64,000 bases of DNA from an uncultured Gammaproteobacteria bacterium (GTDB taxonomy: Bacteria > Patescibacteriota > Microgenomatia > UBA10105 > UBA927). The notes under the pieces were generated by a model. It made no database searches, was not told the DNA's origin, and saw nothing but the letters and a program-made list of their open reading frames with translations. The position numbers and the translations under genes are program-made. Each line of letters starts with the position of its first letter. The first letter of the stretch is position 1. Below, in pieces: positions 6,501 through 64,000 of the stretch. The stretch covers positions 1,117 to 65,116 of the forward strand of contig CAYNJY010000004.1 of NCBI GenBank assembly GCA_964397755.1, written 5' to 3'.

Positions 6501-6541
6501 TACATCAATCGCCCAAAACGGTGGGTTCTAGCCGGTTTATG

Positions 6542-6614
6542 CGCGCCCGAAAGGAGTCGAACCTTCAATCGCCAGGTCCGCAACCTGGTGCTCTATCCAT
6601 TAAGCTACGGGCGC
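6542..6614 (-). tRNA. tRNA-Arg (anticodon GCG as read)
   Basis: 73-nt cloverleaf. Acceptor GCGCCCG/CGGGCGC, anticodon stem CCAGG/CCTGG with loop TTGCGGA, T-arm GAAGGTTCGACTCCTTT. Confidence 0.75.
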
Positions 6615-7091
6615 ATGTAAATTGTTATCTCTAAAGATATCTGCGCAGGCGTATGCATACTGCATAATCTGCTCTTTGAGATATACGCTATTATACCGCA
6701 CAAAACATATTCCCCCAACATTCTTGCGAGATCTCTTCTCTTTGCTTCTTTTCTTCCTATAAGATTTATTAAACTGATTTTCTGGTATTTTCAGTAATTT
6801 AGACCAGTAACGTTTTGCATCTCTCTCCTTATGATACCAATGCAGATGAAGTGCTATCCTAAATTTTTTCTCATCAAGGTCGAAACTTCTTCTCAAAAGA
6901 GTAACAAATAATAAAGCCAGTTCCGGGTCTGTGTTCGCGAATCTCACCACGCCCCGGGTTTTGGTACCCTCTGCCCAATAGAGCAGAGAGAGTAAAATTC
7001 TCGAAATAGTTCGATTCTTACTGAGATTCAAGAAGCAAAACTTAAGAAGGCTTTTCGAGAGGGATTTTTTGGGTGAGCCAGTGGGCGGCAT
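6600..7091 (-). CDS. hypothetical protein, possibly a degenerate LAGLIDADG-type homing-endonuclease-like protein
   Basis: 163 aa, the same size as single-motif LAGLIDADG enzymes. ILLSLLYWAEGTKTRGVVRF resembles the LLYLAGFVDGDGSI helix-turn-strand with the acidic residue kept. The body is AT-rich (about 38 percent GC). Its last five codons and stop lie inside the 5' part of tRNA-Arg. Confidence 0.3.
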   Translation of the reverse strand: MPPTGSPKKSLSKSLLKFCFLNLSKNRTISRILLSLLYWAEGTKTRGVVRFANTDPELALLFVTLLRRSFDLDEKKFRIALHLHWYHKERDAKRYWSKLLKIPENQFNKSYRKKRSKEKRSRKNVGGICFVRYNSVYLKEQIMQYAYACADIFRDNNLHAPVA

Positions 7092-9445: not shown

Positions 9446-10141
9446 CTACCGAGCCATGGTGACACCCCAGACAAATTGAGTACCACTTCTTTTCAAAACA
9501 TTGGCTGCCGATCGCATAGTTGCACCGGTCGTAAAGACATCATCAAATAAAAATACATTGTTCCATTGTTTCATTGCTACATTGTTAGCTGCAAAAACTT
9601 TTTCCATATTTTTAAGCCTCTCCTCCCTCTTCTTCACTTCGACTTGCGGAGTCGTTTTACGAACTCGATACAGCAAATCCGTTCGCATGGGAATCTGCAA
9701 TTGTTGGGCAATGAGCGCGCCCAATATTTCTGCCTGATTATAGCCTCTTTCTCGAAGACGAGTAGGATGAAGCGGAATGGGAATTAAAAAAGAGCTTAGG
9801 GGCTTAGTGCTTAGCAGCTTAGTAAGATCAACAAAAGAAGAGGAAGGAATAAGGGTAGTAAATTCTTGGGCGAGATCGTAGACGTAGCGGTATTTCAATG
9901 CTTTGACCGCCTTTCGAATACTGCCGTCATAGTGGAAAAAGCTTGTTAAACCATCGAGGCCGTAGCGGGTTCTACACCGCGGGTGCGTTGCGCCGCCAAT
10001 GGCAGGCCGCTCGCAGACCGGACAGATCGCCTCATTTCGTTCGATAACCCGAATAATTGAAGTACATCGTTGACAAAAATATTTCCCACCTTTTCCGCAC
10101 CCCAAACAGCGCTTCGGAAAAACAATATCAAGAATCTTCAC
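9446..10141 (-). CDS. comFC: ComF family protein (double zinc ribbon plus phosphoribosyltransferase domain)
   Basis: CxxC...CxxC pairs (RCLGCGK, CQRC, CPVCERP) and a PRTase motif (VFLFDDVFTTGATM). The start is moved to GTG 10141, which follows a strong AAGGAGG Shine-Dalgarno. The longer ORF in the track (to 10273) overlaps the tmRNA gene. Confidence 0.8.
   Translation of the reverse strand: MKILDIVFPKRCLGCGKGGKYFCQRCTSIIRVIERNEAICPVCERPAIGGATHPRCRTRYGLDGLTSFFHYDGSIRKAVKALKYRYVYDLAQEFTTLIPSSSFVDLTKLLSTKPLSSFLIPIPLHPTRLRERGYNQAEILGALIAQQLQIPMRTDLLYRVRKTTPQVEVKKREERLKNMEKVFAANNVAMKQWNNVFLFDDVFTTGATMRSAANVLKRSGTQFVWGVTMAR
9556..9592. repeat. CAATGNNN-type octamer repeat (reverse orientation) inside comFC
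   Basis: acattgttccattgtttcattgctacattgtt. It encodes NNVAMKQWNNV just before the PRTase motif. Confidence 0.75.
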
Positions 10142-10203
10142 AAAAAGACCTCCTTGTCTATTGTACAAGGAGGTGCTTGCACTGAGACACTCTTGTGTCG
10201 AAG

Positions 10204-10590
10204 TGGAGACGGAGAGGAGTGAGCTCTCGTCCAGAATGACGATCCCAACACATCTACAGGCGTAGTCAATCATTGTTGTCGTCTCTTCCTGATCCGATTG
10301 ACAGGAAAGAAAAGATCAAGACGTATTGTTCTTCGTCTTAATTGGAACGTCGAACCATTAAGACTGCATCCCGGCTTTGTTTACACCTCAAGAATGTCAC
10401 CGAGAAAACGTTCAAGAGATGGCCTTACGCCTCTGCAAAGAGATATGCTCTCGGTGCTCGAGATGCGTAAAAGGCTGCTTCAGCTTGTTCAGCATCAGCA
10501 TTTATTGGTTTGACGGTTGTTTAACGACCACCCATCAAGGTCGGCCTGCAGTGTTAAAGAGCATCACTCTGTCGAATCTTGTACGTCCCC
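10204..10590 (-). ncRNA. ssrA: tmRNA (ssrA)
   Basis: The minus-strand 5' end is GGGGACGTACAAGATTCGACAGAG, nearly identical to the Bacillus subtilis tmRNA 5' end (GGGGACGTTACGGATTCGACAGGG). The 3' end is GGAC-GAGAG-CTCACTC-CTCTC-CGTCTCC-A. This matches the B. subtilis tRNA-like domain architecture (GGAC GTGGG TTCGACT CCCAC CGTCTCC A) and pairs with the 5' GGGGACG. It lies immediately upstream of smpB on the same strand. Confidence 0.7.
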
Positions 10591-13093: not shown

Positions 13094-13750
13094 TTACGGC
13101 GAGTTTTGTCTGCCTGCTTGGGCCGCAAGCTCTCCGATCGCTTGCACAACTTTCTCTGGATTTGGGACTCCAAGGAACTCAAAGTTCGGCAGTCCCCCTG
13201 CGGTCTGAACGTACACGTTGCCGTAGTTAAAAAGGGCCGAGAGAATGCCTCCTGACTTATAGGTGACATCCTGAATCTTTGTGAGTCGGGCTTCTGAAAA
13301 TTCTTTATACAGAAGGTTGATGAAATCGACATCGACAACTCTGTGGTTTGTTACAATGTAGATGTTAAAAAACCACCGGAGGAAACCAGTCAGTACAAGA
13401 CCAAAAGTTGCGACGTACCAGAAGAGCGTCCCTATAACGATGTAACTCGACGGCAGCTTTACAGGGAGAAGGGAGAATTTCAGAAAAAAGGGGAAGAGAA
13501 CTGATGGTGCAAATAAAAGGGTAAGGATAAGAACGGCACGTGGCACAAGGAAGATGACGTGCTGCCGAAGAAACAGAATTACTTCCTCCCCGCGCTCTTG
13601 CGTTTCAAACCGCACCCCCCCAGGGCTTACGGCGAAACAGGTGAGCGGCCCCATGGGGATTCGTGCTCTTTGCACCTCAGCGGTCACACCCTGTTTTTCT
13701 TTCTTTGCAACTGGCTTCTCCCGACGTGATGAGTCAAAGAGTGTCGGCAT
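13094..13750 (-). CDS. membrane protein with bacterial PH-like (bPH_2/YdbS-like) domain
   Basis: Two N-terminal TM helices followed by a domain ending VTNHRVVDVDFINLLYKEFSEARLTKIQDV..YKSGGILSALFNYGNVYVQTAGG, typical of the bPH_2 family. Start at ATG 13750 to avoid overlap with the upstream gene. Confidence 0.55.
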   Translation of the reverse strand: MPTLFDSSRREKPVAKKEKQGVTAEVQRARIPMGPLTCFAVSPGGVRFETQERGEEVILFLRQHVIFLVPRAVLILTLLFAPSVLFPFFLKFSLLPVKLPSSYIVIGTLFWYVATFGLVLTGFLRWFFNIYIVTNHRVVDVDFINLLYKEFSEARLTKIQDVTYKSGGILSALFNYGNVYVQTAGGLPNFEFLGVPNPEKVVQAIGELAAQAGRQNSP

Positions 13751-16709: not shown

Positions 16710-17411
16710 CTAAGTCCCGAATCGCCGCTGTCGCCTGAAAAACTCCGCAATTACCTCATCAAGCTTCTCGGGGGTAAACTCCGGCATGTACCACGGAGGA
16801 AAAACAATTTCACTGTACTCGCTTTGCCAAAGAAGAAACCCGCTCAAACGCTGCTCGCCACCGGGACGAACGATGAGATCCGGATCGGGAATGCCTGCGG
16901 TGTCCAAGAGCGAAGAAAAGATTTGTTCGCTCAATTTGAAATTTGAAATTTGAAATTTGAAATTTCCGTGCAATCTTTGGATTGCACGGATGATCTCGTC
17001 TCTTCCGCCGTAGTTCAACGCAAACACTACCGTAATTTTTGTATTGTCCTTCGTTTGTTCAACCACCTTCTCAAGGGCATTTTTTATATCCGGCGCGAAC
17101 TTTGATATATCGCCTATTGCCAACACGCGCACACCTTTCTCATGAAGCCTTTGCCAGCGCTTCTGTATGACGTGTCGAAAGAGGCGCATGACTCCCTCCA
17201 CCTCCCTTTTGTCCCGCTGCCAATTCTCTGTTGACCAGGCCCAGAAGGTCATGAACTTAACGCCCCGCTTGGCGGCATACTCAATGAGGGGTTCTAAAAT
17301 TTTGTCCGTCACCCGCCGATGTCCTTCCAGAACCGGCAATCCCTGCTCCCGCGCCCACCGCCGATTGCCGTCCATGATGACGGCGATATGTTGAGGGATA
17401 TTTTTTCCCAT
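16710..17411 (-). CDS. uppS: undecaprenyl diphosphate synthase (cis-prenyltransferase)
   Basis: Conserved motifs HIAVIMDGNRRWA, FWAWSTENWQR and RPGGEQRLSGFLLWQSEYSE. It carries an in-frame insertion, NFKFQISNFKL, encoded by an (AAATTTC)n tandem repeat. Confidence 0.85.
   Translation of the reverse strand: MGKNIPQHIAVIMDGNRRWAREQGLPVLEGHRRVTDKILEPLIEYAAKRGVKFMTFWAWSTENWQRDKREVEGVMRLFRHVIQKRWQRLHEKGVRVLAIGDISKFAPDIKNALEKVVEQTKDNTKITVVFALNYGGRDEIIRAIQRLHGNFKFQISNFKLSEQIFSSLLDTAGIPDPDLIVRPGGEQRLSGFLLWQSEYSEIVFPPWYMPEFTPEKLDEVIAEFFRRQRRFGT
16932..16966. repeat. heptamer tandem repeat (GAAATTT)x4-5 inside uppS
   Basis: Plus strand reads caatttgaaatttgaaatttgaaatttgaaatttcc. The same unit in the same coding orientation recurs at 49165-49205. 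Confidence 0.85.
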
Positions 17412-17414: not shown

Positions 17415-18398
17415 TTAAAATAGATGCTCTGTCGCAAGCCGTGCTCCTCGCGCTGGTTTGTTCACAATAATCTGCTGTACTCCATTAACTTCGCGTACTC
17501 TTTCTAAAACTTTCGTTTCATCCTTCGCTTCGCAAATAAGATGAACATTAGGGCCTGCGTCGATGGTGAAATATACCGGTATTCCTTCTTTTCTCCAATC
17601 ACCGGCCGCTTTCATAATTTTTTTGGTACCCTCGTTCCAGTACAGAAGAGGTGGATTCTGTGTTTGCATCACCTGATGCATAGAGAGCGCGTCTTCTTCA
17701 ATTGCCGGACCGAGGGTAGACAAATTTTTTCCTTCTAATCCTTGCGTAACTCGTTTAATACGGTCTGGTAATTCCTGTAATCGTTTCTCAAAAAAAGGAC
17801 TCGTGTGTATCCCATTGTGTCCGGCGGAAGACGAAACATCTTTTGCGTTATTTTCCACAATGACCAATATATCTCGCAGATCCCAGTGCGTTGAGGGAAA
17901 AAGCGAATACGCATACGAATCATCTGACGTTTCGCCTGTTTTCCACTCAACAAATCCATCGGGAATCGACCGGCACGCAGAACCGGATCCAACGCGAGCG
18001 AGAATTGTTAATTCTTTTTCAGAAAGTGTCAACCCTAATGCTGTAGTTGCAGCGACTGTGAGGGCGGCAAATCCAGACGCAGAGGATGCTGCACCCGAGG
18101 ATTTCGGAAATGAATTTTTTGTTGCAACCCGGGCAAACAAGTTCTTCTCTAATTTTTCTCGTATCACATCAAGCTGTCGAACTACTCGTGCAACTTCAGA
18201 ATCACTGAATCCCCCCTTTTCAAGAAGATCAACCCTGTCCTTTAATAAATCTTTTGAAAATTCAACAGTTGTTGTCGTCGTCGAAGCACTAAGATTCATC
18301 GAAATGGAAGTATTATGGGGAAGCCGAAGTTTTGCATCTTTTCGACCCCAATATTTGATAAACGCAATGTTTGCCGGAGCGATTGCTGTGGTTCTCAT
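17415..18398 (-). CDS. mvaD: diphosphomevalonate decarboxylase
   Basis: 327 aa, N-terminal APANIAFIKYWGRKD and a GHMP-kinase fold. It is the last gene of the mevalonate operon. Confidence 0.85.
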   Translation of the reverse strand: MRTTAIAPANIAFIKYWGRKDAKLRLPHNTSISMNLSASTTTTTVEFSKDLLKDRVDLLEKGGFSDSEVARVVRQLDVIREKLEKNLFARVATKNSFPKSSGAASSASGFAALTVAATTALGLTLSEKELTILARVGSGSACRSIPDGFVEWKTGETSDDSYAYSLFPSTHWDLRDILVIVENNAKDVSSSAGHNGIHTSPFFEKRLQELPDRIKRVTQGLEGKNLSTLGPAIEEDALSMHQVMQTQNPPLLYWNEGTKKIMKAAGDWRKEGIPVYFTIDAGPNVHLICEAKDETKVLERVREVNGVQQIIVNKPARGARLATEHLF

Positions 18399-19303
18399 AG
18401 TTCTATCCTCACCCCTTCTGCATTCGGACGGACATCTAGTGCCTGTCCGCCTGCTTGTTGTATTGCCTTGCTTATCTCTTCTCTCTTATCGCTTTTTGCA
18501 AGGGCAATCATGCAATCTCCGCCGCCTGCGCCAGAAAGTTTTGCCCCCCAAGCCCCGGCGCGCTTGGCAGCGCTGATTAAGTCCTCAAGCTTCTGTGTGC
18601 TGACACCCAGATCCCGCAAGTACTCCTGATTAAAATCCATAAGCTTCCCGAGCCGTTCCCAGTTTTGAGAAAGAAGCGCTTCTTTTCCGCTAGCCACAAG
18701 TTTTCCGACCCCTTGCATGATTCGATCTACTTTTTCCGGATATGCTTCTCTCTTTCTCCCAACGTCGCGCACAAGCTCAACAGTATCCGCTTTCACTCCT
18801 GTATAGCCAACAACAAGAGGAATGGTGCCTACCGCTAACGGCTCGGCGGTCTTCCTTGAACCCGTATAATATACTGTTCCTCCCCAGACTGCTGCTGCGA
18901 CATCAAATCCAGAACCAACTCCTTGCACGGAAAGCACTGCTCTGTAGGACAACTCAAAAAGCTCTCTTTGGCCAACTACTTTCTCATACAACATACTCAG
19001 AGCCTTGAGCGTTGCAACGGTCACTGCGGAAGAGGATCCAAAACCATAGCCGTTGAGCTGTCCTTGGGTCGTGATTCGAATGCCTCCATCTGTGCCCCAT
19101 GCCTTCTTGGCAACGCCGATCGCCGCGTCGATGAACCGCGTATCATGTACCTGCGGCGAGTTAATGATACTTTTGTATCCTTTACTCTTTTCAACTGTCA
19201 CTGAAAGCCTTTGATCAACCGCCGTCACAATGCACGGCTGTCCATAGACCACCGCGTGTTCCCCCATGAGCAGTAATTTCCCTGGAGCGGAAACCTTAAC
19301 CAT
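18395..19303 (-). CDS. mevalonate kinase (GHMP kinase family)
   Basis: 302 aa with N-terminal SAPGKLLLMGEHAVVYG and a GHMP glycine-rich motif (GYGFGSSSAVTVA). Confidence 0.75.
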   Translation of the reverse strand: MVKVSAPGKLLLMGEHAVVYGQPCIVTAVDQRLSVTVEKSKGYKSIINSPQVHDTRFIDAAIGVAKKAWGTDGGIRITTQGQLNGYGFGSSSAVTVATLKALSMLYEKVVGQRELFELSYRAVLSVQGVGSGFDVAAAVWGGTVYYTGSRKTAEPLAVGTIPLVVGYTGVKADTVELVRDVGRKREAYPEKVDRIMQGVGKLVASGKEALLSQNWERLGKLMDFNQEYLRDLGVSTQKLEDLISAAKRAGAWGAKLSGAGGGDCMIALAKSDKREEISKAIQQAGGQALDVRPNAEGVRIEL

Positions 19304-20306
19304 ACAAATGTCTCAATCCGACCAATAATTTTTTTCGTTTCTGTTCCAGCCGTATCCCCTCTTCTCCTAATTGGATCTCTTGCAAAGTATATCCGTGAGG
19401 CCGACAGACGGCTTCTACAATTTTGCGCTGCCGATGGTAGCAGAGGAGAAACCCTACCGGGCCGCTCCTGCCGCCCCCTCCGAGGATTTTGGCTGCACCT
19501 CCGGCCTTCTCAATTGAACGGATGAGAGGAATAACCCTCCGGCTCACCACGCCCATACCCTCGAGTGTTCGCAGGCCTTTACGGATAGCGCTCTTAAGTT
19601 TTTCTTCGTTCCCTTGTTTGAGCGCTGCTGTTACCCTTCTTACCTGCTCTTCATTTTCATTAAACAATTTCTCCATTTTTGATTTTTGATATTTGACTTT
19701 TGCTTTTACGTACGCCACCATCTCTCCGGTTGTCTCCTTGGGTCTTCCGGTATCAACGAGGAAAAAGTGGTCGAGCTCTGGCGGCAGTTTTATCGGCAGC
19801 TGCCAAAAACTTCGTAAAAATTCAAGTTCTTTCCGATACCAGAGAAACCCGCCGAAGGTTACCGCTGTATTATCTCCGCCGGACGGGTTGCCGTGCATTT
19901 TTTTCTCGACTTCATAGGCAAGCTGGTTGATGGCCACCGGGTTCCAGACTTTTTTTAGAAAATAGATGAGCGCTCCAACTGTCGCGACGGCCACTGCAGC
20001 CGAAGATCCCACGTGATATCCTGCCGGAATTTGAGATGAAACAGTAACTTTAAGCTTCGGCAAGCTCTCCAGCTTAAGGTGCTCGCGCACTTTCTCGACT
20101 GCATGCCGCACATAGTCCATCGACTCACTTGCTTCAATCAATAATGTGTTACTTGTTGATGGGTGCTTGTCCCGAGTCTTTCCGGGGGAGTGGGTAATGG
20201 TTACAAAGAGCCGCAGGTTTACGGCGGCGATGAGGGCCGGCTTGCCGTAGACCACCGCGTGTTCCCCCATTACATGAATTTTACCGGGAACGGAGACTGT
20301 TACCAT
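19296..20306 (-). CDS. second GHMP kinase of the mevalonate operon (probable phosphomevalonate kinase)
   Basis: 336 aa with VPGKIHVMGEHAVVYG and a GHMP motif (GYHVGSSAAVAVA). It is a paralog of the adjacent kinase. An oligo-repeat encodes KAKVKYQKSKM in frame. Confidence 0.65.
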   Translation of the reverse strand: MVTVSVPGKIHVMGEHAVVYGKPALIAAVNLRLFVTITHSPGKTRDKHPSTSNTLLIEASESMDYVRHAVEKVREHLKLESLPKLKVTVSSQIPAGYHVGSSAAVAVATVGALIYFLKKVWNPVAINQLAYEVEKKMHGNPSGGDNTAVTFGGFLWYRKELEFLRSFWQLPIKLPPELDHFFLVDTGRPKETTGEMVAYVKAKVKYQKSKMEKLFNENEEQVRRVTAALKQGNEEKLKSAIRKGLRTLEGMGVVSRRVIPLIRSIEKAGGAAKILGGGGRSGPVGFLLCYHRQRKIVEAVCRPHGYTLQEIQLGEEGIRLEQKRKKLLVGLRHLYG

Positions 20307-20337
20307 ACAACAACTGCAAATTTTAAAGTTTGAATTT

Positions 20338-20643
20338 TTAAGTACCCAATGGTTTCACCTTTATCCCATACGGAATCACCCCGTCAGGGTCAGGGTGCGT
20401 GACGCGGCGGATAACTGTCACCACCTTCATCCCAATACGTGATTTTTCCTCGGTCGGGTCGACCAGTTGTGCCATGATGCGTCCTCCTCCGCTAAGCGCC
20501 ACGATAACCACCGGGTACGGAGCTTGATCGCTAAATTCTGCCGGCGGTACGCGGACAATTGTCCACGAAATAATCTTCCCTTCCTTGCCGAGAAGGGCTG
20601 CTACTTTTTTCTGATTCCGCCAAATTTTGACCGGACTAAGCAT
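20338..20643 (-). CDS. DUF35-type OB-fold protein (thiolase/HMG-CoA synthase scaffold family)
   Basis: 101 aa OB-fold-like protein located between thiolase and the kinases. This is the position of the DUF35 scaffold in archaeal-type mevalonate operons. No zinc-ribbon part is present. Confidence 0.55.
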   Translation of the reverse strand: MLSPVKIWRNQKKVAALLGKEGKIISWTIVRVPPAEFSDQAPYPVVIVALSGGGRIMAQLVDPTEEKSRIGMKVVTVIRRVTHPDPDGVIPYGIKVKPLGT

Positions 20644-21832: not shown

Positions 21833-21908
21833 AATCTATACATCTGCACATGGCAAATCTGCGTCAGTCATGTATTTGCTTATTTGTAGATTTGTTTATT
21901 TGTAGATT

Positions 21909-22952
21909 TTAAATCGTATGTGTCTGCTTCAAATACTGCACGTAATCAATGTACGTCTTGTCCTTCATCTGATCTCTCACCGTCATCTTTCTCGTCGTTC
22001 GTTGTTTGTTGTATGGTGTAAGTCCGCGGGTTGTTTCAAAAAGCAGCGCGTCGCTTCCGGCCCCCGACCCGTACGACACCATGAAAATTCTCTCGCCTGG
22101 TTTGGCAATATCGAGAACCGCGGCTAAACCGACCATTGACGATGCCGAGTAGGGGTTCCCAATCTGATCAACAACAAGTGATGGCGCGAGCTGTTCCATA
22201 GCAAATCCGAGTCGATCAGCAACAATCCGCGGAAATTTCCCATTCGGCATGTGGAACACGCAGTAGTCGATGTCTTGCGGTTTGATGTGGATCTTTTCAA
22301 AAAGGCGAAGCGCCGCCCCTGTAACGTGCGCAAAGTATGCCGGCTCTCCGGTAAAACGGCCCGCATGCGACGGGTAGCGGATCCCGTCGCGTCGCCAAAA
22401 ATCAGGCGTATCTGAGGAGTAGGATGTGTAAGCAAGAAGTTTTGCAACTACCTTTTCTTTTCCAAGGAGAAATGCTGCTCCTCCCGCTGCCGACGTGTAT
22501 TCAAGAACATCGTGGGGTTTGCTCTGCGCCGTATCGGATCCGATTGCAAGTCCGTACCGTGCCTGCCCGCTTGTGATGAACACTGCGATTGCCTGCATGC
22601 CAGCGGTACCAGCTTTGCAGGCAAATTCAAGATCCGCCGCCAGATAATTGTTTCCAATGCCTAAAAGCTCACCGACTATTGTCGACGTCGGGTTGACGGC
22701 ATAGGGATGGCTCTCTGACCCAACAAGTAAGGCTTCAATATCCGAGGGTTTACCCTTCCATGCCTGAAGACACCTCAAGGAAGCCTCAACGGCGATGGTG
22801 ACCGCGTCCTCGTCGTAGGCAGGAACAGCCTTCTCTGTGAGTCCTAAAGATCTGGTGACCTCGCCCGGATCCTTTCTCCACGCCGAGGCAATATCGGCGA
22901 CCTTGAGCCGATACTCTGGAATATAGATGCCGTAGGAAACAATGCCAACCAT
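21909..22952 (-). CDS. hydroxymethylglutaryl-CoA synthase
   Basis: Start at ATG 22952 (MVGIVSYGIYIP...). The HMGS-type condensing-enzyme fold carries the catalytic Cys region (AGSDALLFE..). The upstream extension in the ORF track is made of repeat sequence. Confidence 0.85.
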   Translation of the reverse strand: MVGIVSYGIYIPEYRLKVADIASAWRKDPGEVTRSLGLTEKAVPAYDEDAVTIAVEASLRCLQAWKGKPSDIEALLVGSESHPYAVNPTSTIVGELLGIGNNYLAADLEFACKAGTAGMQAIAVFITSGQARYGLAIGSDTAQSKPHDVLEYTSAAGGAAFLLGKEKVVAKLLAYTSYSSDTPDFWRRDGIRYPSHAGRFTGEPAYFAHVTGAALRLFEKIHIKPQDIDYCVFHMPNGKFPRIVADRLGFAMEQLAPSLVVDQIGNPYSASSMVGLAAVLDIAKPGERIFMVSYGSGAGSDALLFETTRGLTPYNKQRTTRKMTVRDQMKDKTYIDYVQYLKQTHTI

Positions 22953-22954: not shown

Positions 22955-22985
22955 GTTTCAAATCCCAAATCTCAAATCCCAATGT
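22955..22985. repeat. oligomer tandem repeat (CAAATCC-type x4) at the HMGR/HMGS junction
   Basis: caaatcccaaatctcaaatcccaatg. It spans the HMGR stop and the 20-nt gap before the HMGS start. Confidence 0.8.
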
Positions 22986-24153
22986 CCAAGCCTCGCGCCA
23001 AGCGCTGGTGTGCCGCTGCAAGCGTCCCTTCAGATAGCGAGGCCAGAAGCGATAGCTCACCGGCAAGCACTGCTCCTGCTACTATCTCTGCAAACCTCTC
23101 TGCGTTCTCTCCCTTGTTTCCTCCTGCAACACCCAGTATCTCAAGCGCTTCCTTCTGTGTCGCCAGCCCCGTCCCCCCGCCCACCGTCCCGACCATGAGA
23201 TTAGGAAGGTACACGCTCACATATACATCTTCATTTCTTCCGTTTTCCTTTCTTACGACTTCCATCGTCGTTATGCCAAGCGCTCCCTCGGCGACGTGCC
23301 CGGGATCCTGTCCAGTCGCAAGAAACAGCGCCGCGACAACGTTGGCGTATTGGGCGTTGAATCCCACCGACCCGCTCATGGCTGAACCGATCATACATTT
23401 AGCTAACCACACGTCAAAGATTTTCTGTGCAGAGGTTTTAAGAGTATGGCGAAGCACTGACGAAGGAAGTGTTACCTCAGCCCATACTTTGAACCCTCGC
23501 CCCTCAATCACATTGAGCCAGGATGGTTTTTTATCAACGTCAAAGTTTCCGGCTAAACTAACACAGCGCGCTCGGGTCTTTCGTTCAATTGTTCGAACAA
23601 TTGAACTCGTGGCGATGGTTGCCATATTCATCCCCATGGCATCCTGGGTATCAAAGACGAAGCGGACAAAGCAGTACCTTCCTACTCCCCGGGCGAGAAA
23701 TTTTTTGAGGGTTACGTGCGCTGAGGTCTTTTGGGCAATCTTTTGAAGCAGTTCGAAATGCTCCTCAAGAAAGTTGTTCAGTCGATCGTTTTGGGCTAGG
23801 TTGGCCAGCTTAAATACCACACCCCGGGTGGCTCCCACCCGGTAGCTGTCCACCACCGCCCCACCACTCTCGGTTATTGCTTTACACCCGCGGTTAACCG
23901 ACGCCACCAGCGCCCCTTCGGTGGTAGCCAAAGGAATAAAATAACTTTTAACTTTTACCTTTAAACTTTTGACTTGTAATGGGCCGGCGACTCCCATGGG
24001 AATCTGCGCCACGCCGATCATGTTCTCGCAGTTACGGGAGGCGGCAACCGACTCGTCAAGGGTGAAGGAGCCGGTGTTTTTTAAATCGACTTGTAACTCC
24101 TTTTCCAAAGCCTCTCTTCTTTCCTTAACGGTCTTCATGTCGCGTAGCTTCAT
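22972..24153 (-). CDS. hydroxymethylglutaryl-CoA reductase
   Basis: HMGR signature regions (EGRGFKV, DAMGMNM, GTVGG). Start assigned to MKLRDMK; the upstream MFHCQKLNVTMEQ stretch is encoded by repeat DNA. The last residues (LDIGI) are encoded by a CAAATCC-type repeat. Confidence 0.8.
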   Translation of the reverse strand: MKLRDMKTVKERREALEKELQVDLKNTGSFTLDESVAASRNCENMIGVAQIPMGVAGPLQVKSLKVKVKSYFIPLATTEGALVASVNRGCKAITESGGAVVDSYRVGATRGVVFKLANLAQNDRLNNFLEEHFELLQKIAQKTSAHVTLKKFLARGVGRYCFVRFVFDTQDAMGMNMATIATSSIVRTIERKTRARCVSLAGNFDVDKKPSWLNVIEGRGFKVWAEVTLPSSVLRHTLKTSAQKIFDVWLAKCMIGSAMSGSVGFNAQYANVVAALFLATGQDPGHVAEGALGITTMEVVRKENGRNEDVYVSVYLPNLMVGTVGGGTGLATQKEALEILGVAGGNKGENAERFAEIVAGAVLAGELSLLASLSEGTLAAAHQRLARGLDIGI

Positions 24154-24235
24154 GGTTTCATGGCTACATTGCTCCATGGTTACATTGAGTTTTTGACAAT
24201 GAAACAATGTGGCAATGGAACAATGTTGTACTAAA
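24150..24235. repeat. CAATGNNN-type octamer repeats at the HMGR start
   Basis: catggtttcatggctacattgctccatggttacattgagtttttgacaatgaaacaatgtggcaatggaacaatgttg. This is near-identical to the copies at 9556-9592 and 46850-46878. Confidence 0.75.
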
Positions 24236-26387: not shown

Positions 26388-26792
26388 ATGGCAACACCAA
26401 CTGGAACACCGATCGGAGAAATTTCAGGACCAGGGCTCGGACCGTTTGGGACAATTACGAAAGAACTCGCCTCTGGTGAAGCCGGCGGTGTTACCGGCCT
26501 CCAAAAAGTCTCAAACATCATCTCGGGCATTATCGGCATCTTAACAGTCGCCGCAGGTATTTGGTTCATGATCCAGTTTCTCATCGGGTCCTTCTACTGG
26601 ATCACCTCTGGTGGAGATAAAGGGAAGCTTCAAGAAGCGAAAAACAGAATCACGCACGCGTTTATCGGCCTCATTATCGTCATTGCCGGCTGGTCGATTA
26701 TCGCCCTCATGGGTAAATTCTTCAATTTTGATATCCTCCTTTCTGAGCCAAGAACGATTATCCGAGGTCTCTACCCTGGAGGAGGTCAGTAA
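26388..26792 (+). CDS. VirB2/TrbC-like T4SS pilin family protein (paralog 5)
   Basis: IIGILTVAAGIWFMIQFLIGSFYWITSGGDKGKLQEAKNRITHAFIGLIIVIAGWSIIALMG. ATG start. A 1-nt gap separates it from the next paralog. Confidence 0.65.
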   Translation: MATPTGTPIGEISGPGLGPFGTITKELASGEAGGVTGLQKVSNIISGIIGILTVAAGIWFMIQFLIGSFYWITSGGDKGKLQEAKNRITHAFIGLIIVIAGWSIIALMGKFFNFDILLSEPRTIIRGLYPGGGQ

Positions 26793-26793
26793 C

Positions 26794-27144
26794 ATGGAAC
26801 GAGCGCTCGCGGTGATTCGAAACCCCATTCTTCCACCCTCCCTTGGCGGCGGCACCGCGCCATCGGTTGAATCGGGTGGCAAGGGGGTGGGGCTTCTTAT
26901 CGGGAACATCATTGGTGGGCTTTTTATCTTTGGGTTTATCATTGCTTTTTTCTACCTTCTCACGGGCGCGTTCTTCTGGATTACGAGTGGCGGCGATAAG
27001 AACGGGTTGGAAAGTGCAAGAAACCGCATCATTCACTCCCTTGTTGGGCTTTTAATCCTCGCATCTGCCTGGGCGATGTTCTCACTGGTTGGGAAGTTTT
27101 TCGGTATAGATCTGCGGAACCTGCCGATCCCATCAATTAAATAA
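26794..27144 (+). CDS. VirB2/TrbC-like T4SS pilin family protein (paralog 6)
   Basis: Start at ATG 26794 (MERALAV...). FIFGFIIAFFYLLTGAFFWITSGGDKNGLESARNRIIHSLVGLLILASAWAMFSLVG. Confidence 0.65.
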   Translation: MERALAVIRNPILPPSLGGGTAPSVESGGKGVGLLIGNIIGGLFIFGFIIAFFYLLTGAFFWITSGGDKNGLESARNRIIHSLVGLLILASAWAMFSLVGKFFGIDLRNLPIPSIK

Positions 27145-27168
27145 ACCCCTATTGACAAGGCTCCTCTT

Positions 27169-27198
27169 GTTGCACAACAATGAATGGTAGCGTATAAT
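27169..27198 (+). promoter_or_regulatory. sigma-70 promoter upstream of pilin paralog 7
   Basis: TTGCAC, an 18-nt spacer, TATAAT, then GAGGAGG Shine-Dalgarno 7 nt before ATG 27224. Confidence 0.5.
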
Positions 27199-27223
27199 CA
27201 TTTTGTTTCACGAGGAGGACTCT

Positions 27224-27556
27224 ATGCATAAAGTGCTCGCACAGGCGAAAATTGAAATCAAGCAACCGTCTTCCATCAGAATCACTGAAATCGGACAACT
27301 CATTAGCGCGGTTGTCGGCACTCTTCTCATCGTTGCAGCCCTGTTGGCGTTCCTCTACCTCATTCTCGGAGGCATCAAGTGGATTACAAGCGGCGGAGAC
27401 AAAGCCGGCATGGAAGAAGCGCGCAATAAAATCACCCACGCAATCGTCGGACTTATTATCGTCGGCGCTGCCTGGGCCATCATGACGCTCATTCAAAACT
27501 TCCTCGGCGTCACGATCATTGGCGGAACCATTGAGTTTCCAAAGCCTTTTTTATAG
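27224..27556 (+). CDS. VirB2/TrbC-like T4SS pilin family protein (paralog 7)
   Basis: LLIVAALLAFLYLILGGIKWITSGGDKAGMEEARNKITHAIVGLIIVGAAWAIMTLI. Start at the SD-preceded ATG 27224. Confidence 0.65.
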   Translation: MHKVLAQAKIEIKQPSSIRITEIGQLISAVVGTLLIVAALLAFLYLILGGIKWITSGGDKAGMEEARNKITHAIVGLIIVGAAWAIMTLIQNFLGVTIIGGTIEFPKPFL

Positions 27557-27639
27557 GCAAAAACACTAAGGGACGTAAAAATCCTCGACGACAGCCGGGG
27601 ATTTTTGTTTTTCAGGAAATACCGTATACTCTACGTACC

Positions 27640-27969
27640 ATGATTCTCCCGCTTCTTTCCGTCATCCGGGCCGCGCCCCTCACGGATACGATCGAGGACG
27701 TTCCAACAATTCTCTCGTTCGAGTCGCTCTTCCGCAATATTGTTGGTGCCGTCGTTGCACTCTCTGGGATTGCGATTTTCATCATGCTCCTCGTCGGGGG
27801 CTTTACGTACCTCTTCTCCGGGGGTGACCAAAAAAAGCTCGAGCAAGCCCGTGGCACTATCACCAATGCTGTCGGCGGGCTTGTCATTATCGTCGCAGCC
27901 TACCTCATCCTTCAGACCATCAAGGCGTTCACCGGCGTTGACGTCACAATCTTTCGCATTCCTCGGTAA
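27640..27969 (+). CDS. VirB2/TrbC-like T4SS pilin family protein (paralog 8)
   Basis: VVALSGIAIFIMLLVGGFTYLFSGGDQKKLEQARGTITNAVGGLVIIVAAYLILQTI. Confidence 0.65.
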   Translation: MILPLLSVIRAAPLTDTIEDVPTILSFESLFRNIVGAVVALSGIAIFIMLLVGGFTYLFSGGDQKKLEQARGTITNAVGGLVIIVAAYLILQTIKAFTGVDVTIFRIPR

Positions 27970-27983
27970 CCCTACGGCGTGAT

Positions 27984-46511: not shown

Positions 46512-46514
46512 TTC

Positions 46515-46871
46515 ATGCTCCCCAAGCCCTACCGACTTCCGGCTCCTGGTATAAGAAATGTTTTACTTAGCACGCTTCGTGTCGCGGATAGAACCACGCA
46601 GTTGATTTATGTGCGCAACAGCCGTGCCGTTTCCCGCTTTGCGATCATTGCTTCAGCGAAAGCAGACAAACGAGCCGCTGGCCGCAACCGCATCAAGCGT
46701 CTTGTTCGCGAATCCATACGGCTGCTTCTCCCTCGCCTAACGCCCGGGTGGGATACGGTCATTGTGGCGAGACAGCCGTTCGGCGATGTGAGTCAACCGC
46801 ACGTGCAAAGAAACCTCGAAGAACTCCTTCGCCGTGCGCACCTTTTTCACAATGGAACAAGGGAACAATGA
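46515..46871 (+). CDS. rnpA: ribonuclease P protein component
   Basis: 118 aa basic protein in the rpmH-rnpA position. Its C-terminal residues are encoded by a CAATG-type repeat. Confidence 0.85.
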   Translation: MLPKPYRLPAPGIRNVLLSTLRVADRTTQLIYVRNSRAVSRFAIIASAKADKRAAGRNRIKRLVRESIRLLLPRLTPGWDTVIVARQPFGDVSQPHVQRNLEELLRRAHLFHNGTREQ

Positions 46872-47110
46872 AACACTTCATCCTTGCCGCTATCCGCTTC
46901 TACCAGCGCCACCTCTCGTTTGAAAGCGGGATCCTGAAGTTCCTATTCCTCACGGACCGCGCGTGCCGGTATTCGCCAACATGCAGCGAGTATATGTATC
47001 AGGCGGTCAGCCGCTATGGTATAATGACCGGATTGTGGCTGGGGACCAAGCGTGTTCTCCGCTGTCACCCATGGGCGGCTGGCGGCCATGACCCCGTGCC
47101 AGCGAGGTAA
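46868..47110 (+). CDS. yidD: membrane protein insertion efficiency factor
   Basis: Start at ATG 46868 (MKHFILAAIRFYQRHLS). Conserved CRYSPTCSEY and RCHPW motifs. Confidence 0.85.
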   Translation: MKHFILAAIRFYQRHLSFESGILKFLFLTDRACRYSPTCSEYMYQAVSRYGIMTGLWLGTKRVLRCHPWAAGGHDPVPAR

Positions 47111-48344: not shown

Positions 48345-49691
48345 GTGATGTACCACCGTTTCTTTTTTGCGTTACTCCTAATTTTTCTGCCGACCCAACT
48401 GGGTCTTCACTTCTGGCCCGACTGGGCGATGGTATTGGGGAGAAGAGTGGACTACCTCGCGCCCACAATATTTTTGACTGACCTTCTTGTTTTTTTGACC
48501 GTCGGATGTTGGTTGGCATCGAGGGTTGTCCAGTGGGTGCGAGGAAATCCCAAATCCCAAATCCCAATTTCCAAACAAATCCTAAAGATCAAAAGTCAAA
48601 TGTTTCAAACAAAACGCCTGTGGTTGGTGGGAGTGACAGCATCGGTAGTTATGAATGTGTTTATTGCAACAAATCCGCCGGTTGCGATGTATACATTGGT
48701 GAAAGTTTCGGAGCTTCTGATGGTTGGGTGGTATATTGTGAAGACGAAGCCGAACTTTTCGCTTGTCGCTTTTTGCTTATCGCTCGGGGTTTTGTATTCA
48801 TCGCTTCTTGCCATTGCGCAGTTTGCGCTGCAGCATTCCGTCGGCGGGGCATTCTGGTTTTTGGGTGAGCGGACGTTTTCGGCGGATACTCCGGGCATTG
48901 CGCACATTCCCCTTTCTTGGTCATTGAGGCCCTACGCCACCTTCCCTCACCCGAATGTGCTCGGCGGATATCTCGCGGCAACACTGCCGCTCATAACCGC
49001 TCAATTGTTGCACTGTCACATTGCCACAGTGTCAAAAAATAGGAAAGAAAAAAATCCTAGGTGGCAGAAAATCTACTACGGCTTAGTTGTGCTTTTCGGA
49101 ATGGCAGCGCTCATGTTGTCTTTTAGTCGGAGTGCGATCGTGGTTGGAGCACTCGCAACCGTGGCAACGGTTGCGAATTTCAAATTTCAAATTTCAAATT
49201 TCAAATTGTTGCCAACTATTTTTCTTGTGGGTTTTTTTGCCGCCCTCCTTATCACCTATCACCTATCACGTATCACTCCCAACGAAGAATCTGTTGTGGT
49301 TCGTCAACAGCTCAACGCAGCTGCCATAAAACTTTGGTCTAGCTCCCCCCTTTTTGGCGTCGGGCTAGGAAACTTCTTGGTGCGGTTGCCGGACGTTCTC
49401 CCATCTCGCGAGGTGTACTTTCTTCAGCCCGTGCACAATATCTACCTCCTGGTTCTATCGGAAACAGGGAGTGTGGGTTTAGCGCTTTTTTTTCTGTTAG
49501 TCTGGCGTAGCACGAGGAAATCTGTTCATTCTCCTTGTATCACTTTTCTTCTCCTCGGTCTCGTCGACCACTACCCGCTCACCCTCCAGCAGGGACAGCT
49601 GCTGTTCACCGTTCTCCTTGCCCTCTCGTATACCCCTCGTTCTTCTCTGCCCCCTAGTCTCAAACTCTCTCATGCTACAATGACGCCATGA
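48345..49691 (+). CDS. O-antigen ligase-like (Wzy_C/WaaL family) membrane protein
   Basis: 448 aa polytopic protein with the ligase-domain pattern (LSFSRSAIVVG ... FGVGLGNF). It carries two in-frame oligo-repeat insertions (PKSQIPISKQILKIKSQ and ANFKFQISNFKLL). Confidence 0.65.
   Translation: MMYHRFFFALLLIFLPTQLGLHFWPDWAMVLGRRVDYLAPTIFLTDLLVFLTVGCWLASRVVQWVRGNPKSQIPISKQILKIKSQMFQTKRLWLVGVTASVVMNVFIATNPPVAMYTLVKVSELLMVGWYIVKTKPNFSLVAFCLSLGVLYSSLLAIAQFALQHSVGGAFWFLGERTFSADTPGIAHIPLSWSLRPYATFPHPNVLGGYLAATLPLITAQLLHCHIATVSKNRKEKNPRWQKIYYGLVVLFGMAALMLSFSRSAIVVGALATVATVANFKFQISNFKLLPTIFLVGFFAALLITYHLSRITPNEESVVVRQQLNAAAIKLWSSSPLFGVGLGNFLVRLPDVLPSREVYFLQPVHNIYLLVLSETGSVGLALFFLLVWRSTRKSVHSPCITFLLLGLVDHYPLTLQQGQLLFTVLLALSYTPRSSLPPSLKLSHATMTP
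48537..48600. repeat. composite oligomer tandem repeat (CCCAAAT units then TCAAAAG/TCAAATG units) inside the ligase-like gene
   Basis: cccaaatcccaaatcccaatttccaaacaaatcctaaagatcaaaagtcaaatg. Confidence 0.8.
49165..49205. repeat. heptamer tandem repeat (AATTTCA)x4-5 inside the ligase-like gene
   Basis: gcgaatttcaaatttcaaatttcaaatttcaaattg. The unit and coding orientation are identical to the uppS repeat and encode NFKFQISNFKL in both proteins. Confidence 0.85.
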
Positions 49692-61522: not shown

Positions 61523-62305
61523 ATGCGCAAGCTCCTTACTTTTTTGGCAATCTTTCTTGTTGGTTTTGGGACAAGTCAACTCATTTCTTTCTTCCGTACC
61601 CCCGGAATCAGGCTGTTAAACAAATCGGTGGAGGTTACCAAAGAAGCAACCGCAACCAGCGTGCTCACCGATAAAGCACGTGAAGAAGCTCGTGTAAGCC
61701 GCGTCATTGATGGGGATACGATCGAGCTTGAGGGTGGACGCAAGGTTCGCTACATCGGCATTGATACGCCCGAGGTGGTGGATCCGCGAAAACCTGTTGA
61801 GTGCTTTGGGAAAGAGGCGAAAGAAGAGAATAGACGACTGGTAGACGGGAGGACAGTAAAACTTGAAAAGGACGTATCCGAGATTGATCGCTACGGACGG
61901 TTACTTCGATATATCTACATTGGCGATGTGATGATCAATGAAGCACTAGTTCGAAATGGTTTTGCCCACGCGTCGAGCTACCCGCCGGACGTGAAGAACC
62001 AAGAGCGACTCTTTGCTGCCGAGCGAGAAGCGCGGGAGAATAATCGCGGGTTGTGGGGAGGATGTACTTCTTCAACAATACAACAATTTAACAATGTAAC
62101 AATTTCACCAACAGTAGTAGGCGGTAGTTCATCAGATTGTAGTATCAAGGGTAATATTAGCTCAAAGGGAGAAAAGATCTACCACCTTCCCGGCTGCGGA
62201 TCGTATAACAAGACGGCAATCGATGAATCCAAAGGCGAACGCTGGTTTTGCATAGAGGGCGAAGCCCTCTCCGCCGGCTGGCGCAAAGCCAAAAACTGCC
62301 CGTAG
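61523..62305 (+). CDS. thermonuclease (SNase-like) with C-terminal Cys-containing domain
   Basis: Signal anchor, then an SNase core ([24 protein letters not shown] ... [11 protein letters not shown] ... [18 protein letters not shown]), then a C-terminal domain with 4 Cys ([20 protein letters not shown]...[19 protein letters not shown]). Confidence 0.8.
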
Positions 62306-63238: not shown

Positions 63239-64000
63239 TGAAGTCGTCGCCGGCCACGAGGAGACGATGAGGGGGTCAGTGTGTTGGCGCGGCAAGCTGC
63301 TCCAGAGTTCTTCCGTTAGAAAGGGCATAAACGGGTGGAGGAGTTTGAGGATTGTTAAGAATACGTGCCGAAGAACCGCCAGAGCTTGCACGTCTCCCTC
63401 TTTAAATCTATCTTTGTTTTTTTCCAGATGGACGTCGGCGAGGGTATGCCAGGTAAAGTCGTAGATTTTTTGCGCCGCGTCAGAGAAGTGGTAACTCTCC
63501 ATGTCCTTCGTCACTCCACTAGCGAGCATGTTGAGCTCTGAAATTATTCTTTTATCGTTTGGATTTTTTAGCGTTTTATGCATCTTTTCATCATACATTT
63601 GAGTTTTGACATTTGAGTTTTGAGCTCGCAGATTCATCTCGATGAATCTGCCAATGTTCCAGAGTTTATTGGCAAAATTCCTCATCCCTCGGATTTTATC
63701 TTCCGATAGCGACTGGTCGTTGCCCGCGGCAGTGCCGTAGACGAGCGCAATCCGGAGCGCATCGGCGCCGTATTTATCGATCATCTCCAGGGGATTGACC
63801 ACATTGCCTTTGCTTTTGCTCATTTTCTGTCCCTTGGCATCGCGGACAAGTCCATGAAGATAAACCGTTCGGAATGGCACATCGCCAGTCATGTAGAGGC
63901 CGAGCATGATCATCCGGCACACCCACCAGGGGAGGATATCGTACCCTGTCTCCATGACGGAGGTGGGATAGAAGTAATCAAAATCCGTCCCCGTGGTTTT
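63227..64000 (-). CDS. valS: valyl-tRNA synthetase (3' part; the gene continues beyond the window end)
   Basis: KMSKS motif (GQKMSKSKGNVVNP), then a ValRS-type anticodon-binding region and C-terminal helices. An oligo-repeat encodes in-frame residues near 63590-63625. Confidence 0.8.
   Translation of the reverse strand, partial: KTTGTDFDYFYPTSVMETGYDILPWWVCRMIMLGLYMTGDVPFRTVYLHGLVRDAKGQKMSKSKGNVVNPLEMIDKYGADALRIALVYGTAAGNDQSLSEDKIRGMRNFANKLWNIGRFIEMNLRAQNSNVKTQMYDEKMHKTLKNPNDKRIISELNMLASGVTKDMESYHFSDAAQKIYDFTWHTLADVHLEKNKDRFKEGDVQALAVLRHVFLTILKLLHPFMPFLTEELWSSLPRQHTDPLIVSSWPATTSLAK

Follow-up and report, generated by a model that had tools for sequence, protein, structure and literature searches.

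By the usual view, repeat units whose length is not a multiple of three either stay out of genes or serve there as switches that shift the frame. How do arrays of 7- and 8-nt units then come to lie, stably, within essential enzymes of a bacterium? We addressed this question in a 64,000-nt stretch of contig CAYNJY010000004.1 (GenBank assembly GCA_964397755.1, positions 1,117 to 65,116), hereafter referred to as the window. Its host is a member of Candidatus Gottesmanbacteria (Microgenomates, candidate phyla radiation or CPR), and the named relatives of its UppS and ligase-like proteins are Gottesmanbacteria or Patescibacteria; the best hits of both are 100% identical proteins of an NCBI contig. 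An initial, sequence-only reading of the window had described short tandem arrays inserted in frame into conserved genes such as uppS, and considered them copies of a mobile or templated element rather than products of slippage. Our comparison with related sequences suggests that these arrays probably behave as microsatellites evolving in place and not as a mobile element.

We searched the window with Tandem Repeats Finder (TRF), counting as an array any repeat with a period of 7 or 8 and at least three copies. This yielded 17 non-redundant tandem arrays (period 7, n = 10; period 8, n = 7), each composed of 3.1-5.4 copies. The redundant output contained 11 rows of period 7 and eight of period 8, against ~0.08-0.1 expected per period (50 block shuffles), and exact period-7 runs of at least 21 nt were seen three times, against 0.00 expected. 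With the same tool, no array of period 3, 6 or 9 with at least three copies was found in the window. Real DNA was also used as a null: 0 arrays were present in 23 related CPR loci of at least 6 kb each (array-free relatives; 322 kb in total). We rejected an assembly artefact, since a single read is longer than an array and separate assemblies contain arrays as well. The arrays are a real feature of the window, and they are distributed as follows (HMG-CoA, 3-hydroxy-3-methylglutaryl-coenzyme A).

9554..9587, minus strand: 8-nt ACAATGNN, 4.2 copies, in frame near the comFC C-terminus (ANNVAMKQWNNV)
9792..9823, minus strand: 8-nt GAGCTTAG-type unit, 4 copies, in frame in comFC (TKLLSTKPLSS)
16933..16965, minus strand: AAATTTC in sense, 4.7 perfect copies (the plus strand reads AATTTGA), in frame in uppS, encoding NFKFQISNFKL
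18471..18494, minus strand: AGATAAG-type unit, 3.4 imperfect copies, in frame in a GHMP kinase gene (18395-19303; KSDKREEIS), with equal ortholog length here
19675..19707, minus strand: CAAAAAT-type unit, 4.7 copies, in frame in a mevalonate-kinase-like GHMP kinase gene (19296-20306; VKAKVKYQKSKM), an orthologous array site
21873..21909, unstranded: 8/16-nt CTACAAAT/AAACAAAT, filling the spacer from the HMG-CoA synthase stop to the thiolase start
22959..22982, unstranded: CAAATCC, 3.4 copies, spanning the HMG-CoA reductase stop (22972-22974), upstream of the HMG-CoA synthase start
23942..23979, minus strand: AAAGTTA-type unit, 5.4 copies, in frame in HMG-CoA reductase (LQVKSLKVKVKSY), between the conserved PMGVAGP and IPLAT motifs
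24147..24185, minus strand: 8-nt [A/C]ATGNNNC, 4.9 copies, HMG-CoA reductase leader, forming the 3' arm of a hairpin; homology supports the last ATG as the start
24196..24225, unstranded: 8-nt ACAATGNN on the plus strand, 3.8 copies, antisense to the operon, in the Yip1/HMG-CoA reductase spacer; inverted partner of 24147-24185
46849..46875, plus strand: 8-nt ACAATGNN, 3.4 copies, over the rnpA stop (46871) and the yidD start region
48545..48575, plus strand: AAATCCC, 4.4 copies, in frame in the ligase-like gene (GNPKSQIPISK), in a variable loop
48755..48784, plus strand: CTTTTCG-type unit, 4.3 imperfect copies, weak or decayed, in a membrane segment of the ligase-like gene (NFSLVAFCLSL)
49176..49207, plus strand: AATTTCA, 4.6 perfect copies, in frame in the Wzy_C/O-antigen-ligase-like gene (48345-49691, plus strand), encoding NFKFQISNFKL
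49250..49276, plus strand: TATCACC, 3.9 copies, in frame in the ligase-like gene (LITYHLSRIT)
62073..62103, plus strand: 8-nt CAACAATN, 3.9 copies, in frame in a staphylococcal-nuclease-like gene (61463-62305), directly past the staphylococcal nuclease (SNase) domain
63595..63624, minus strand: 7/14-nt CAAAACT CAAATGT, in frame in a class I aminoacyl-tRNA synthetase gene (63227 to the window end; AQNSNVKTQMY)

Twelve of the 17 arrays lie within coding sequence and all twelve are in frame, as had been proposed; the remaining five (21873, 22959, 24147, 24196 and 46849) occupy gene junctions or spacers. Array density is 3-4 times higher in non-coding DNA, which represents ~8-13% of the window (P = 0.017; for the related locus L033, P = 0.011). 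That most arrays are found inside housekeeping genes results from a genome that is ~90% coding. The ligase-like gene alone hosts four arrays. We recovered arrays at 10 of the 12 sites named by the sequence-only reading (9554, 16933, 19675, 21873, 22959, 24147 with 24196, 46849, 48545, 49176 and 63595). Of the other two, 20306-20340 is a degenerate run that falls below a TRF score of 30, and ~27176-27190, in the pilin promoter, is not an array. The site given as 21860-21908 does contain an array, at 21873, but its period is 8/16 and not 7. Six arrays had escaped that reading (9792, 18471, 23942, 48755, 49250 and 62073).

The CAATG family of 8-mers that had been reported in the window was found at six places with 12 pattern matches, against 0.08 expected, and the arrays at 9555-9585 and 24196-24226 are 84% alike across 31 nt. 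The possibility that the CAATG core represents a genome-wide motif resembling an uptake sequence was rejected: this core is not overrepresented outside arrays, and ACAATG ranks ~1290th of 4096 hexamers. We also observed that the arrays are clustered along the window, with ten arrays in 9.5-24.2 kb and five in 46.8-49.3 kb, and that the stretches 25000-46800 (~21 kb) and 49300-62000 (~13 kb) are array-free.

We further analyzed how arrays with such periods are read in genes. The uppS array and the second perfect array of the ligase-like gene are reverse-complementary to each other over 33/33 nt and encode the same peptide in the same coding orientation, which the sequence-only reading had correctly described. 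Both the shared peptide and the shared orientation follow automatically from the unit alone. Indeed, three 7-nt units make 21 nt: successive copies are read in different frames, all three being used, and a heptapeptide results. The product of an in-frame (AATTTCA)n array is always NFKFQIS in one rotation or another, and reading the array the other way round (TGAAATT) meets a TGA stop. The ligase ortholog P0130 possesses the identical peptide in the same loop as the window array at 49176.

The same properties were then searched in a sample of 85 related loci (814 kb, with ~20 kb per related genome; individual loci are designated by L numbers), where arrays were classed as coding or spacer by an open reading frame (ORF)-length rule. 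Arrays of at least three copies were predominantly of period 7 (n = 112) or 8 (n = 39) and no other single period exceeded 13 arrays; periods 3, 6 and 9 were rare, though they would be harmless within genes. These 151 arrays comprise 108 distinct units. The sense unit is stop-free in all frames in 54/67 coding arrays of the related loci (57% expected), compared with 25/67 for the antisense unit. When a unit contains a stop in cyclic reading, the array is broken by a mutation in the copy concerned, as in L075, where AAAGTTT AAAGTTT AAAGTTA avoids GTT TAA. The array-encoded residues are chiefly K, S, Q, N, I and F. Coding heptamer arrays mostly present 4.x copies (37/53, with a mode of 33 nt). 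In spacers, 3.x and 4.x copies are both represented and some arrays reach 7-8, a distribution that differs from that of coding arrays (Fisher P = 0.003). Array length clusters around ~30-33 nt in genes and spacers alike. The A_AAT_TTC and C_CCA_AAT rotations of two window arrays (16933-16965 and 48545-48575) also match the X_XXY_YYZ shape of -1 frameshift sites; speculatively, tandem slippery sites might make out-of-frame copy-number intermediates leaky.

The orthologs of uppS offer the clearest view of the evolution of one array. This gene (16710-17411, minus strand; Pfam Prenyltransf, E = 1.6e-70) has its array translated as GNFKFQISNFKL. The loop had been described as about 7 residues longer than that of E. 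coli UppS; this does not hold, since each residue of the window protein has its counterpart in E. coli 1jp3 (226 and 226 residues, respectively). In M. luteus 1f75, the segment opposite the array is AERYKSGEISLDEISET, with a one-residue gap in the query, and the array-bearing protein is 7 residues longer only relative to the short form of many CPR orthologs. Because it equals E. coli 1jp3 in length, the array form of UppS appears to be the canonical one and the CPR form the shorter one. In the AlphaFold model of the window protein (mean pLDDT, the predicted local distance difference test score, of 85), residues 151-160 present a mean pLDDT of 68, and residues 150-161 are predicted to be mostly non-regular, between helices 136-149 and 162-167; the placement in a loop is thus supported by the model. 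Across 121 UppS sequences, the length of the variable segment shows two peaks, one at 19 residues (38 sequences, and 13 more at 18) and the other, exactly 7 residues higher, at 26 (23 sequences); two close UppS with an 8-nt unit differ by 8 residues in length. That orthologs vary in length at the array, as the sequence-only reading held, is therefore correct with these short forms as the reference.

The UppS-site units vary among genomes: AATTTCA in the window, L001, L033 and L072, AATTGAA in L034, AGTTTAA in L075 and ATTCCAA in L092. The arrays of these different genomes are in register and all end with A[A/G]TTG or a close variant. In the window, L001, L033 and L072, the array is identical over 33/33 nt, and the UppS proteins of the other three genomes are only 71-76% identical to that of the window. 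The presence of the array in three other genomes indicates that it is not a recent insertion in the window genome. The sequence-only reading had held that the same extra residues in orthologs from unrelated lineages would mark an ancestral feature; this observation comes near to it, the three lineages here being related ones. L001, L002, L033, L034 and many loci from metagenomes have kept the gene order around uppS. An exact look-up of the window UppS among public contigs gave no match, and a contig scan with the window UppS protein returned two close relatives (L001 and L002) plus many Streptomyces.

Two other sites present arrays in orthologous positions. In mevalonate kinase, the array segment has the same length in every genome and the heptamer is genome-specific: CAAAAAT-like in the window, GTCAAAT in L033 (five perfect copies), AGAGCAA in L002 (4.3 perfect copies), TCAAATC-like in L034 and AAAGATG in L001. 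In HMG-CoA reductase, the array site lies between P[ML]G[VI]AGP and [IV]P[LM]AT, and the units are AAAGTTA (window), AAAGTTT (L075), AAAGTCA (L098, four perfect copies), AAAGTTC (L105), AAAATCA/AAGATCA (L034), CGAATCA (L033), CGAATAC (L001) and the 8-mer GTGCGTCA (L002). Genomes without an array at this site carry LRIEKSEYY or LKILGKYSKGDYF. The HMG-CoA reductase arrays open in the conserved codons CTC AAA GT... and close in ...AAA AGT TAT TAT, and the array units run on into the conserved flank codons, as they also do at UppS (...AATTG AGC). The filled segments are therefore not unrelated to the empty site: the units continue into the flank codons and several segments have equal length in all orthologs. 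A strict length quantum was rejected for HMG-CoA reductase, where segments of 9, 12, 13, 14, 15 and 17 residues were observed without multiples of 7; a 7-residue step is clear at UppS only. Taken as sequences, the arrays at these three independent orthologous sites appear to reflect the concerted evolution of a resident array and not the repeated insertion of an element, because units are homogeneous within a genome, differ between genomes, remain in the same register and are continuous with their flanks.

These observations bear directly on the possibility that a very small mobile or templated element was copied into spacers and, in frame where tolerated, into genes. Such an element would account for the 33-nt array common to two unrelated genes of the window, for the three to six ACAATGNN arrays found in this genome only and, more generally, for the sharing of units within a genome. 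In L034, moreover, a leader of 120 nt with two arrays is duplicated before two genes, in-frame palindromic inserts occupy the same UppS loop in other CPR lineages, and (AATTTCA)n is found in 34 IMG/VR contigs of 22-67% GC. However, no flank identity was found between array copies beyond the repeated unit but for a single base (the AATTG end), and neither terminal inverted repeats nor target duplications are present at the arrays. The diversity of units is also high (108 among 151 arrays), the units of one orthologous site differ by a few homogenised positions and continue into the flank codons, and several coding arrays replace sequence rather than add it, since mevalonate kinase and the other GHMP kinase are of equal length in all orthologs. 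One coincident pair among 17 arrays would be expected, given some hundreds of arrays per genome and skewed units. We consider it improbable that the arrays are copies of such an element; the part of the original claim that stands is that unit families are shared within the genome.

Several observations touch the same loci and units. The palindromic inserts of the UppS loop were seen in L100, L108, L115, L117, L120, L126 and L130, and the ligase orthologs P0134, P0148, P0161 and P0169 present in-frame palindromic inserts in the same permissive loops as well; examples are GTCATCCCCGCGAAAGCGGGGATCC, which encodes VIPAKAGIQ, and GAGGACAGTCCTC...GAGGACTGTCCTC, and they resemble small selfish palindromic elements translated in genes. 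The unit of the window, as AATTTGA in 4.4 copies, was observed in L004 (Staskawiczbacteria; 6506-6536 and 6611-6642) and in L006 (Paludibacteraceae, Bacteroidota; 13481-13511 and 13423-13453), and AGAGCAA is common to L006 and L002, a sharing of units across phyla. The IMG/VR contigs (L036-L069) carry (AATTTCA) arrays of at least three copies, and some of them are very array-rich, such as L039, with 12 arrays in 6.5 kb at 67% GC. A sharp peak of (AATTTCA)n at 4.6 copies in viral contigs is absent, the distribution decaying from 3 to 5 copies.

We observed array statistics beyond expectation, filtering by frame and stop codons, orthologous sites with lineage-specific homogeneous units, a 7-residue step and stability at the species level. 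Our preferred explanation, which we regard as probable, is that the arrays are resident simple-sequence repeats of 7-8 nt that arise and are homogenised in place and are then filtered by selection. Out-of-register copying, through slipped-strand mispairing or template switching during replication or repair, would create and homogenise the arrays in situ, and this process may have an intrinsic step of 7-8 nt. As copying chemistry, one may speculate on flap misprocessing, microhomology-dependent recombination or staggered cutting with fill-in. Selection would then act on the products. Spacer arrays would be largely free. A coding array would survive only if its sense unit is stop-free in three frames or its offending copy is mutated, if its length shifts by three units (21 or 24 nt, i.e., 7 or 8 residues) and if its site is a permissive loop, hairpin or terminus.

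Several results weigh against evolution in place as just described. The UppS array is identical over 33/33 nt in four genomes whose flanks are ~75% identical (0.75^33 = 7.5e-5), and to account for this one must invoke selection, acting on the peptide or the DNA, or else a preferred unit. This identity could be explained because, with a 7-nt unit read in three frames, each homogenised base change hits several residues and none is silent, and it could equally be explained by a favoured unit. Units are also more similar within genomes than between them: the proportion of pairs within one mismatch is 16% within and 7.7% between genomes for period 7, and 23% and 5%, respectively, for period 8 (permutation P < 0.0005 for both), although differences in base composition between genomes may inflate this similarity. 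The ACAATGNN 8-mers are found at up to six places in the window and at 0/149 other loci, and independent local slippage fails to predict such sharing of unit families within a genome. In addition, the 8-mer arrays retain a core of 5-6 nt with 2-3 positions that vary between neighbouring copies, a pattern that simple homogenisation would not give, and a jump of three units starting from fewer than two copies is not ordinary slippage. No copy-number polymorphism was detected at 90% identity or above (~45 members in ten clusters), and turnover itself was not directly seen. Finally, the presence or absence of arrays among close relatives points to a genome-wide determinant. Array-rich loci present 0.3-0.8 arrays per kb, and the close relatives L033 and L071 have, respectively, 0.79 arrays per kb and none in 6 kb. 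Nine loci of ~20 kb are without arrays (the probability of 0 arrays in 20.6 kb at 0.27 per kb is 0.004), and array-rich and array-free states interleave on the UppS tree, a single-gene neighbour-joining tree, even within the Gottesmanbacteria-like clade.

Such a distribution could be produced by a lineage-specific, trans-acting activity that writes or homogenises 7-8-nt arrays with a core preferred by each genome. The activity might be that of a nuclease, a recombinase or a polymerase with a 7-8-nt stagger or footprint, or reflect a lost suppressor of slippage, and the arrays would then mark it; we regard these candidates as rather doubtful. The on/off state of the trait among relatives agrees with this scenario, as do the sharpness of the period spectrum at 7-8 nt, the gathering of lengths at 30-33 nt in genes and spacers, and the genome specificity of the cores: ACAATG in the window, GCGTCA in three arrays of L002, AGGGGAA in three arrays of L100 and AAGTAACC in three arrays of L075. 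On the other hand, no candidate gene was found, in ~20 kb per genome, which does not permit a gene search; base composition may contribute to the similarity of units within genomes; the on/off pattern is read from one gene tree; and this class of repeats occurs in many unrelated phyla with no common factor reported (PMC4679880 and PMC4692102). It is thus unlikely, in our view, that an activity of this kind is the source of the arrays. Stated for the array-rich CPR lineages, the proposal, which we hold with little confidence, is that a trans-acting activity duplicating or converting 7-8 nt, or the loss of its suppressor, with a core preference specific to each genome, writes arrays of ~30 nt into all permissive places (protein loops, gene starts and spacer hairpins). 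If this were true, an enzyme of this sort would also have left the heptamers known since 1990 from Cyanobacteria, Xanthomonas, Beggiatoaceae and Bacteroidetes, and array-rich and array-free CPR genomes that are closely related would be the material for its identification.

The spacer arrays raise the question of whether the arrays are retained for their use. Among neighbouring spacer arrays of the same period, across all loci, 16 pairs are inverted and three are direct (16/19 informative pairs; P = 0.004). In the Yip1/HMG-CoA reductase spacer of the window (24147-24225), CATTGNNN faces NNNCAATG, with a predicted RNA fold of -26.4 kcal/mol (z = -3.3), and the hairpin is also found with other units in L033 (2699-2809; AAGCTCA/TTTGAGA) and L034 (3352-3468; AATTTTC/AAATTGA). 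The HMG-CoA reductase start is the last of five ATGs spaced by 8 nt (24140-24190, minus strand), the copies being AATGTAAC, CATGGAGC, AATGTAGC, CATGAAAC and CATGAAGC. Successive ATGs are in different frames, and ATG number 2, which is in frame, would add 8 residues. In L034, the duplicated leader of ~120 nt with its two arrays (3352-3472 and 5640-5762; 93-94% identity) lies directly upstream of the HMG-CoA reductase and thiolase start codons, and, judging from this arrangement, may constitute a small dispersed regulatory cassette.

These data are consistent with arrays serving as hairpins or translation leaders in spacers and as hydrophilic or disordered linkers in genes: a hairpin is kept in one spacer despite three different units, arrays adjoin start codons, the UppS array is nucleotide-identical in four genomes and K, S, Q and N abound in the peptides of coding arrays. 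Selection on the peptide nevertheless leaves the 7-8-nt DNA period and the perfect DNA repeats unaccounted for, many related genomes have no array at the same sites, and units vary freely at a given site. Function may account for the retention of spacer hairpins but not for the origin of coding arrays, and retention for use is, as a general explanation, hardly likely.

Because a change of a single unit shifts the frame when the unit is not a multiple of three, the arrays could also represent contingency loci, in which a change of copy number toggles a gene. One of the hosts, the surface-polysaccharide ligase-like protein with its four arrays, would be suited to such phase variation. But the hosts are mainly housekeeping genes (UppS, HMG-CoA reductase, mevalonate kinase, aminoacyl-tRNA synthetase and RNase P protein), and every coding array is in frame. 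We searched for array-length variants among the ~45 members of ten clusters of array-bearing proteins at 90% identity, a limited sample: there were none, all length differences within these clusters corresponding to start-codon calls. L002 and L070 are 98.8% identical without gaps, and L034 and L035 are identical. The arrays are not hypervariable switches and are stable at the species level, and we judge phase variation to be very improbable.

The window also contains a mevalonate operon, comFC, the gene of the transfer-messenger RNA (tmRNA), dnaA (43136-44572) and rnpA. The replication origin was placed at ~44.6-46.5 kb from dnaA (minus strand), rnpA-yidD (plus strand) and the minimum of the cumulative GC skew (~44-46 kb), and the genes on either side of this region (43136-46871) point away from it. 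Consecutive small genes at 26650-28663, at least one of which matches T4SS_pilin, contain four occurrences of a 28-nt TCACCCACGCAATCGTCGGACTTATTAT-like motif (71-86% identical to the reference copy), which probably represents a segment that pilin-like paralogs have conserved. At their 5' ends (19235-19307 and 20238-20310), the adjacent GHMP-kinase genes are 78% identical over 73 nt, and these ends look like paralogous N-termini. Finally, the longest ORF called for comFC (9446-10273) overlaps the tmRNA gene (10201-10590) by ~70 nt and, therefore, the true comFC start lies downstream of 10201.

If the arrays are resident repeats, as we favor, they give a concrete picture of a mutational process that writes new peptide segments into conserved proteins: units translated in three frames reshape the loops of minimal-genome enzymes by 7 or 8 residues. 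They also call for caution against taking array-coded segments for insertions with a function. Why bacteria favour heptamers is a question as old as the first description of these repeats, and the existence of array-rich and array-free CPR relatives (~1 Mb each) makes a gene-association test practical.

Comparable repeats have been described in other bacteria. The short tandemly repeated repetitive (STRR) sequences of Cyanobacteria, heptanucleotide repeats reportedly described by Mazel in 1990, have as canonical units CCCCAGT, TTGGTCA and CAACAGT, and are said, after the work of Vioque in 1997, to occur inside the RNase P RNA gene. Like the STRR, the arrays of the window are genome-dispersed heptanucleotide arrays, sometimes in conserved genes, with unknown function. 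They differ by other and far more diverse units (108 in 151 arrays), by ~4-5 copies, by their phylum and by in-frame translation being the rule; none of the three canonical units was found among the 25 commonest units or in the per-locus unit lists. A second comparison is with the Rickettsia palindromic elements, reportedly described by Ogata in 2000 as elements of 100-150 nt with conserved sequence and inverted symmetry that lie in frame in genes. In both cases, short extra DNA is translated within conserved proteins at permissive surface sites, but the arrays present no element identity beyond the 7-8-nt unit. Indeed, we found no full-length sequence with defined ends among them, with the exception of the 120-nt leader of L034.

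The tandem repeats of Borgs also create loops or disordered segments through perfect DNA repeats within ORFs, with rapid turnover and genome-specific abundance (Schoelmerich 2023, PMC9879509). In-ORF Borg units are, however, all divisible by three, whereas the units analyzed here are of 7 or 8 nt and are in frame only via steps of three units. Closer similarities are found with the TAACTGA heptamer direct repeats of Beggiatoaceae, Cyanobacteria and some Bacteroidetes (MacGregor 2015, PMC4679880). These are sets of 2-6 heptamers, often just before start codons, in which stop codons dictate the orientation tolerated within ORFs and whose units cross phyla without a known vehicle, all likenesses to the present arrays; they differ in presenting one dominant, mostly intergenic unit, as opposed to the many units and many in-gene arrays observed here. 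A TAACTGA-related unit (AGTTATC/AGCTATC) was found in one CPR UppS of the 'ISYQLSVIRQ' type (L150), without being the dominant family here. The Beggiatoa unit itself had been suspected in such orthologs, but the L150 DNA shows a related unit only, mainly AGCTATC with one AGTTATC copy. The GGGNATC heptamers of Xanthomonas and Nostoc are G-rich and form quadruplexes (Rehm 2015, PMC4692102). They share with the arrays a preference for about four units, paired inverted arrays (in Xanthomonas) and a location near ORF ends, but the arrays are mostly A/T-rich on the sense strand (45% A), and quadruplex formation therefore cannot explain the similar copy number.

More generally, heptanucleotides predominate among long simple-sequence repeats with units of 5-11 nt (Mrazek, Guo and Shah 2007, as related in PMC4679880 and PMC4692102), and Mrazek and colleagues have proposed a polymerase footprint of ~7 nt (as given in PMC4679880). 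Long simple-sequence repeats resemble the present arrays in their head-to-tail tandem copies, dominant heptamer, scattered phylogeny, depletion in genes and proposed origin by slippage, and differ from them in the CPR host, the location of most arrays within housekeeping genes and the prominent 8-nt class. Here, too, the units are of at most 11 nt and in tandem, they exceed the expectation from composition and heptamers predominate. In full text, the literature library searched gave no account of repeats of this kind from Patescibacteria. We place the arrays with the heptanucleotide long simple-sequence repeats and STRR-type repeats of Cyanobacteria, Xanthomonas, Beggiatoaceae and Bacteroidetes, from which they differ by their host lineage, the share of in-frame arrays in housekeeping genes, conserved sites with lineage-specific units and an 8-nt class.

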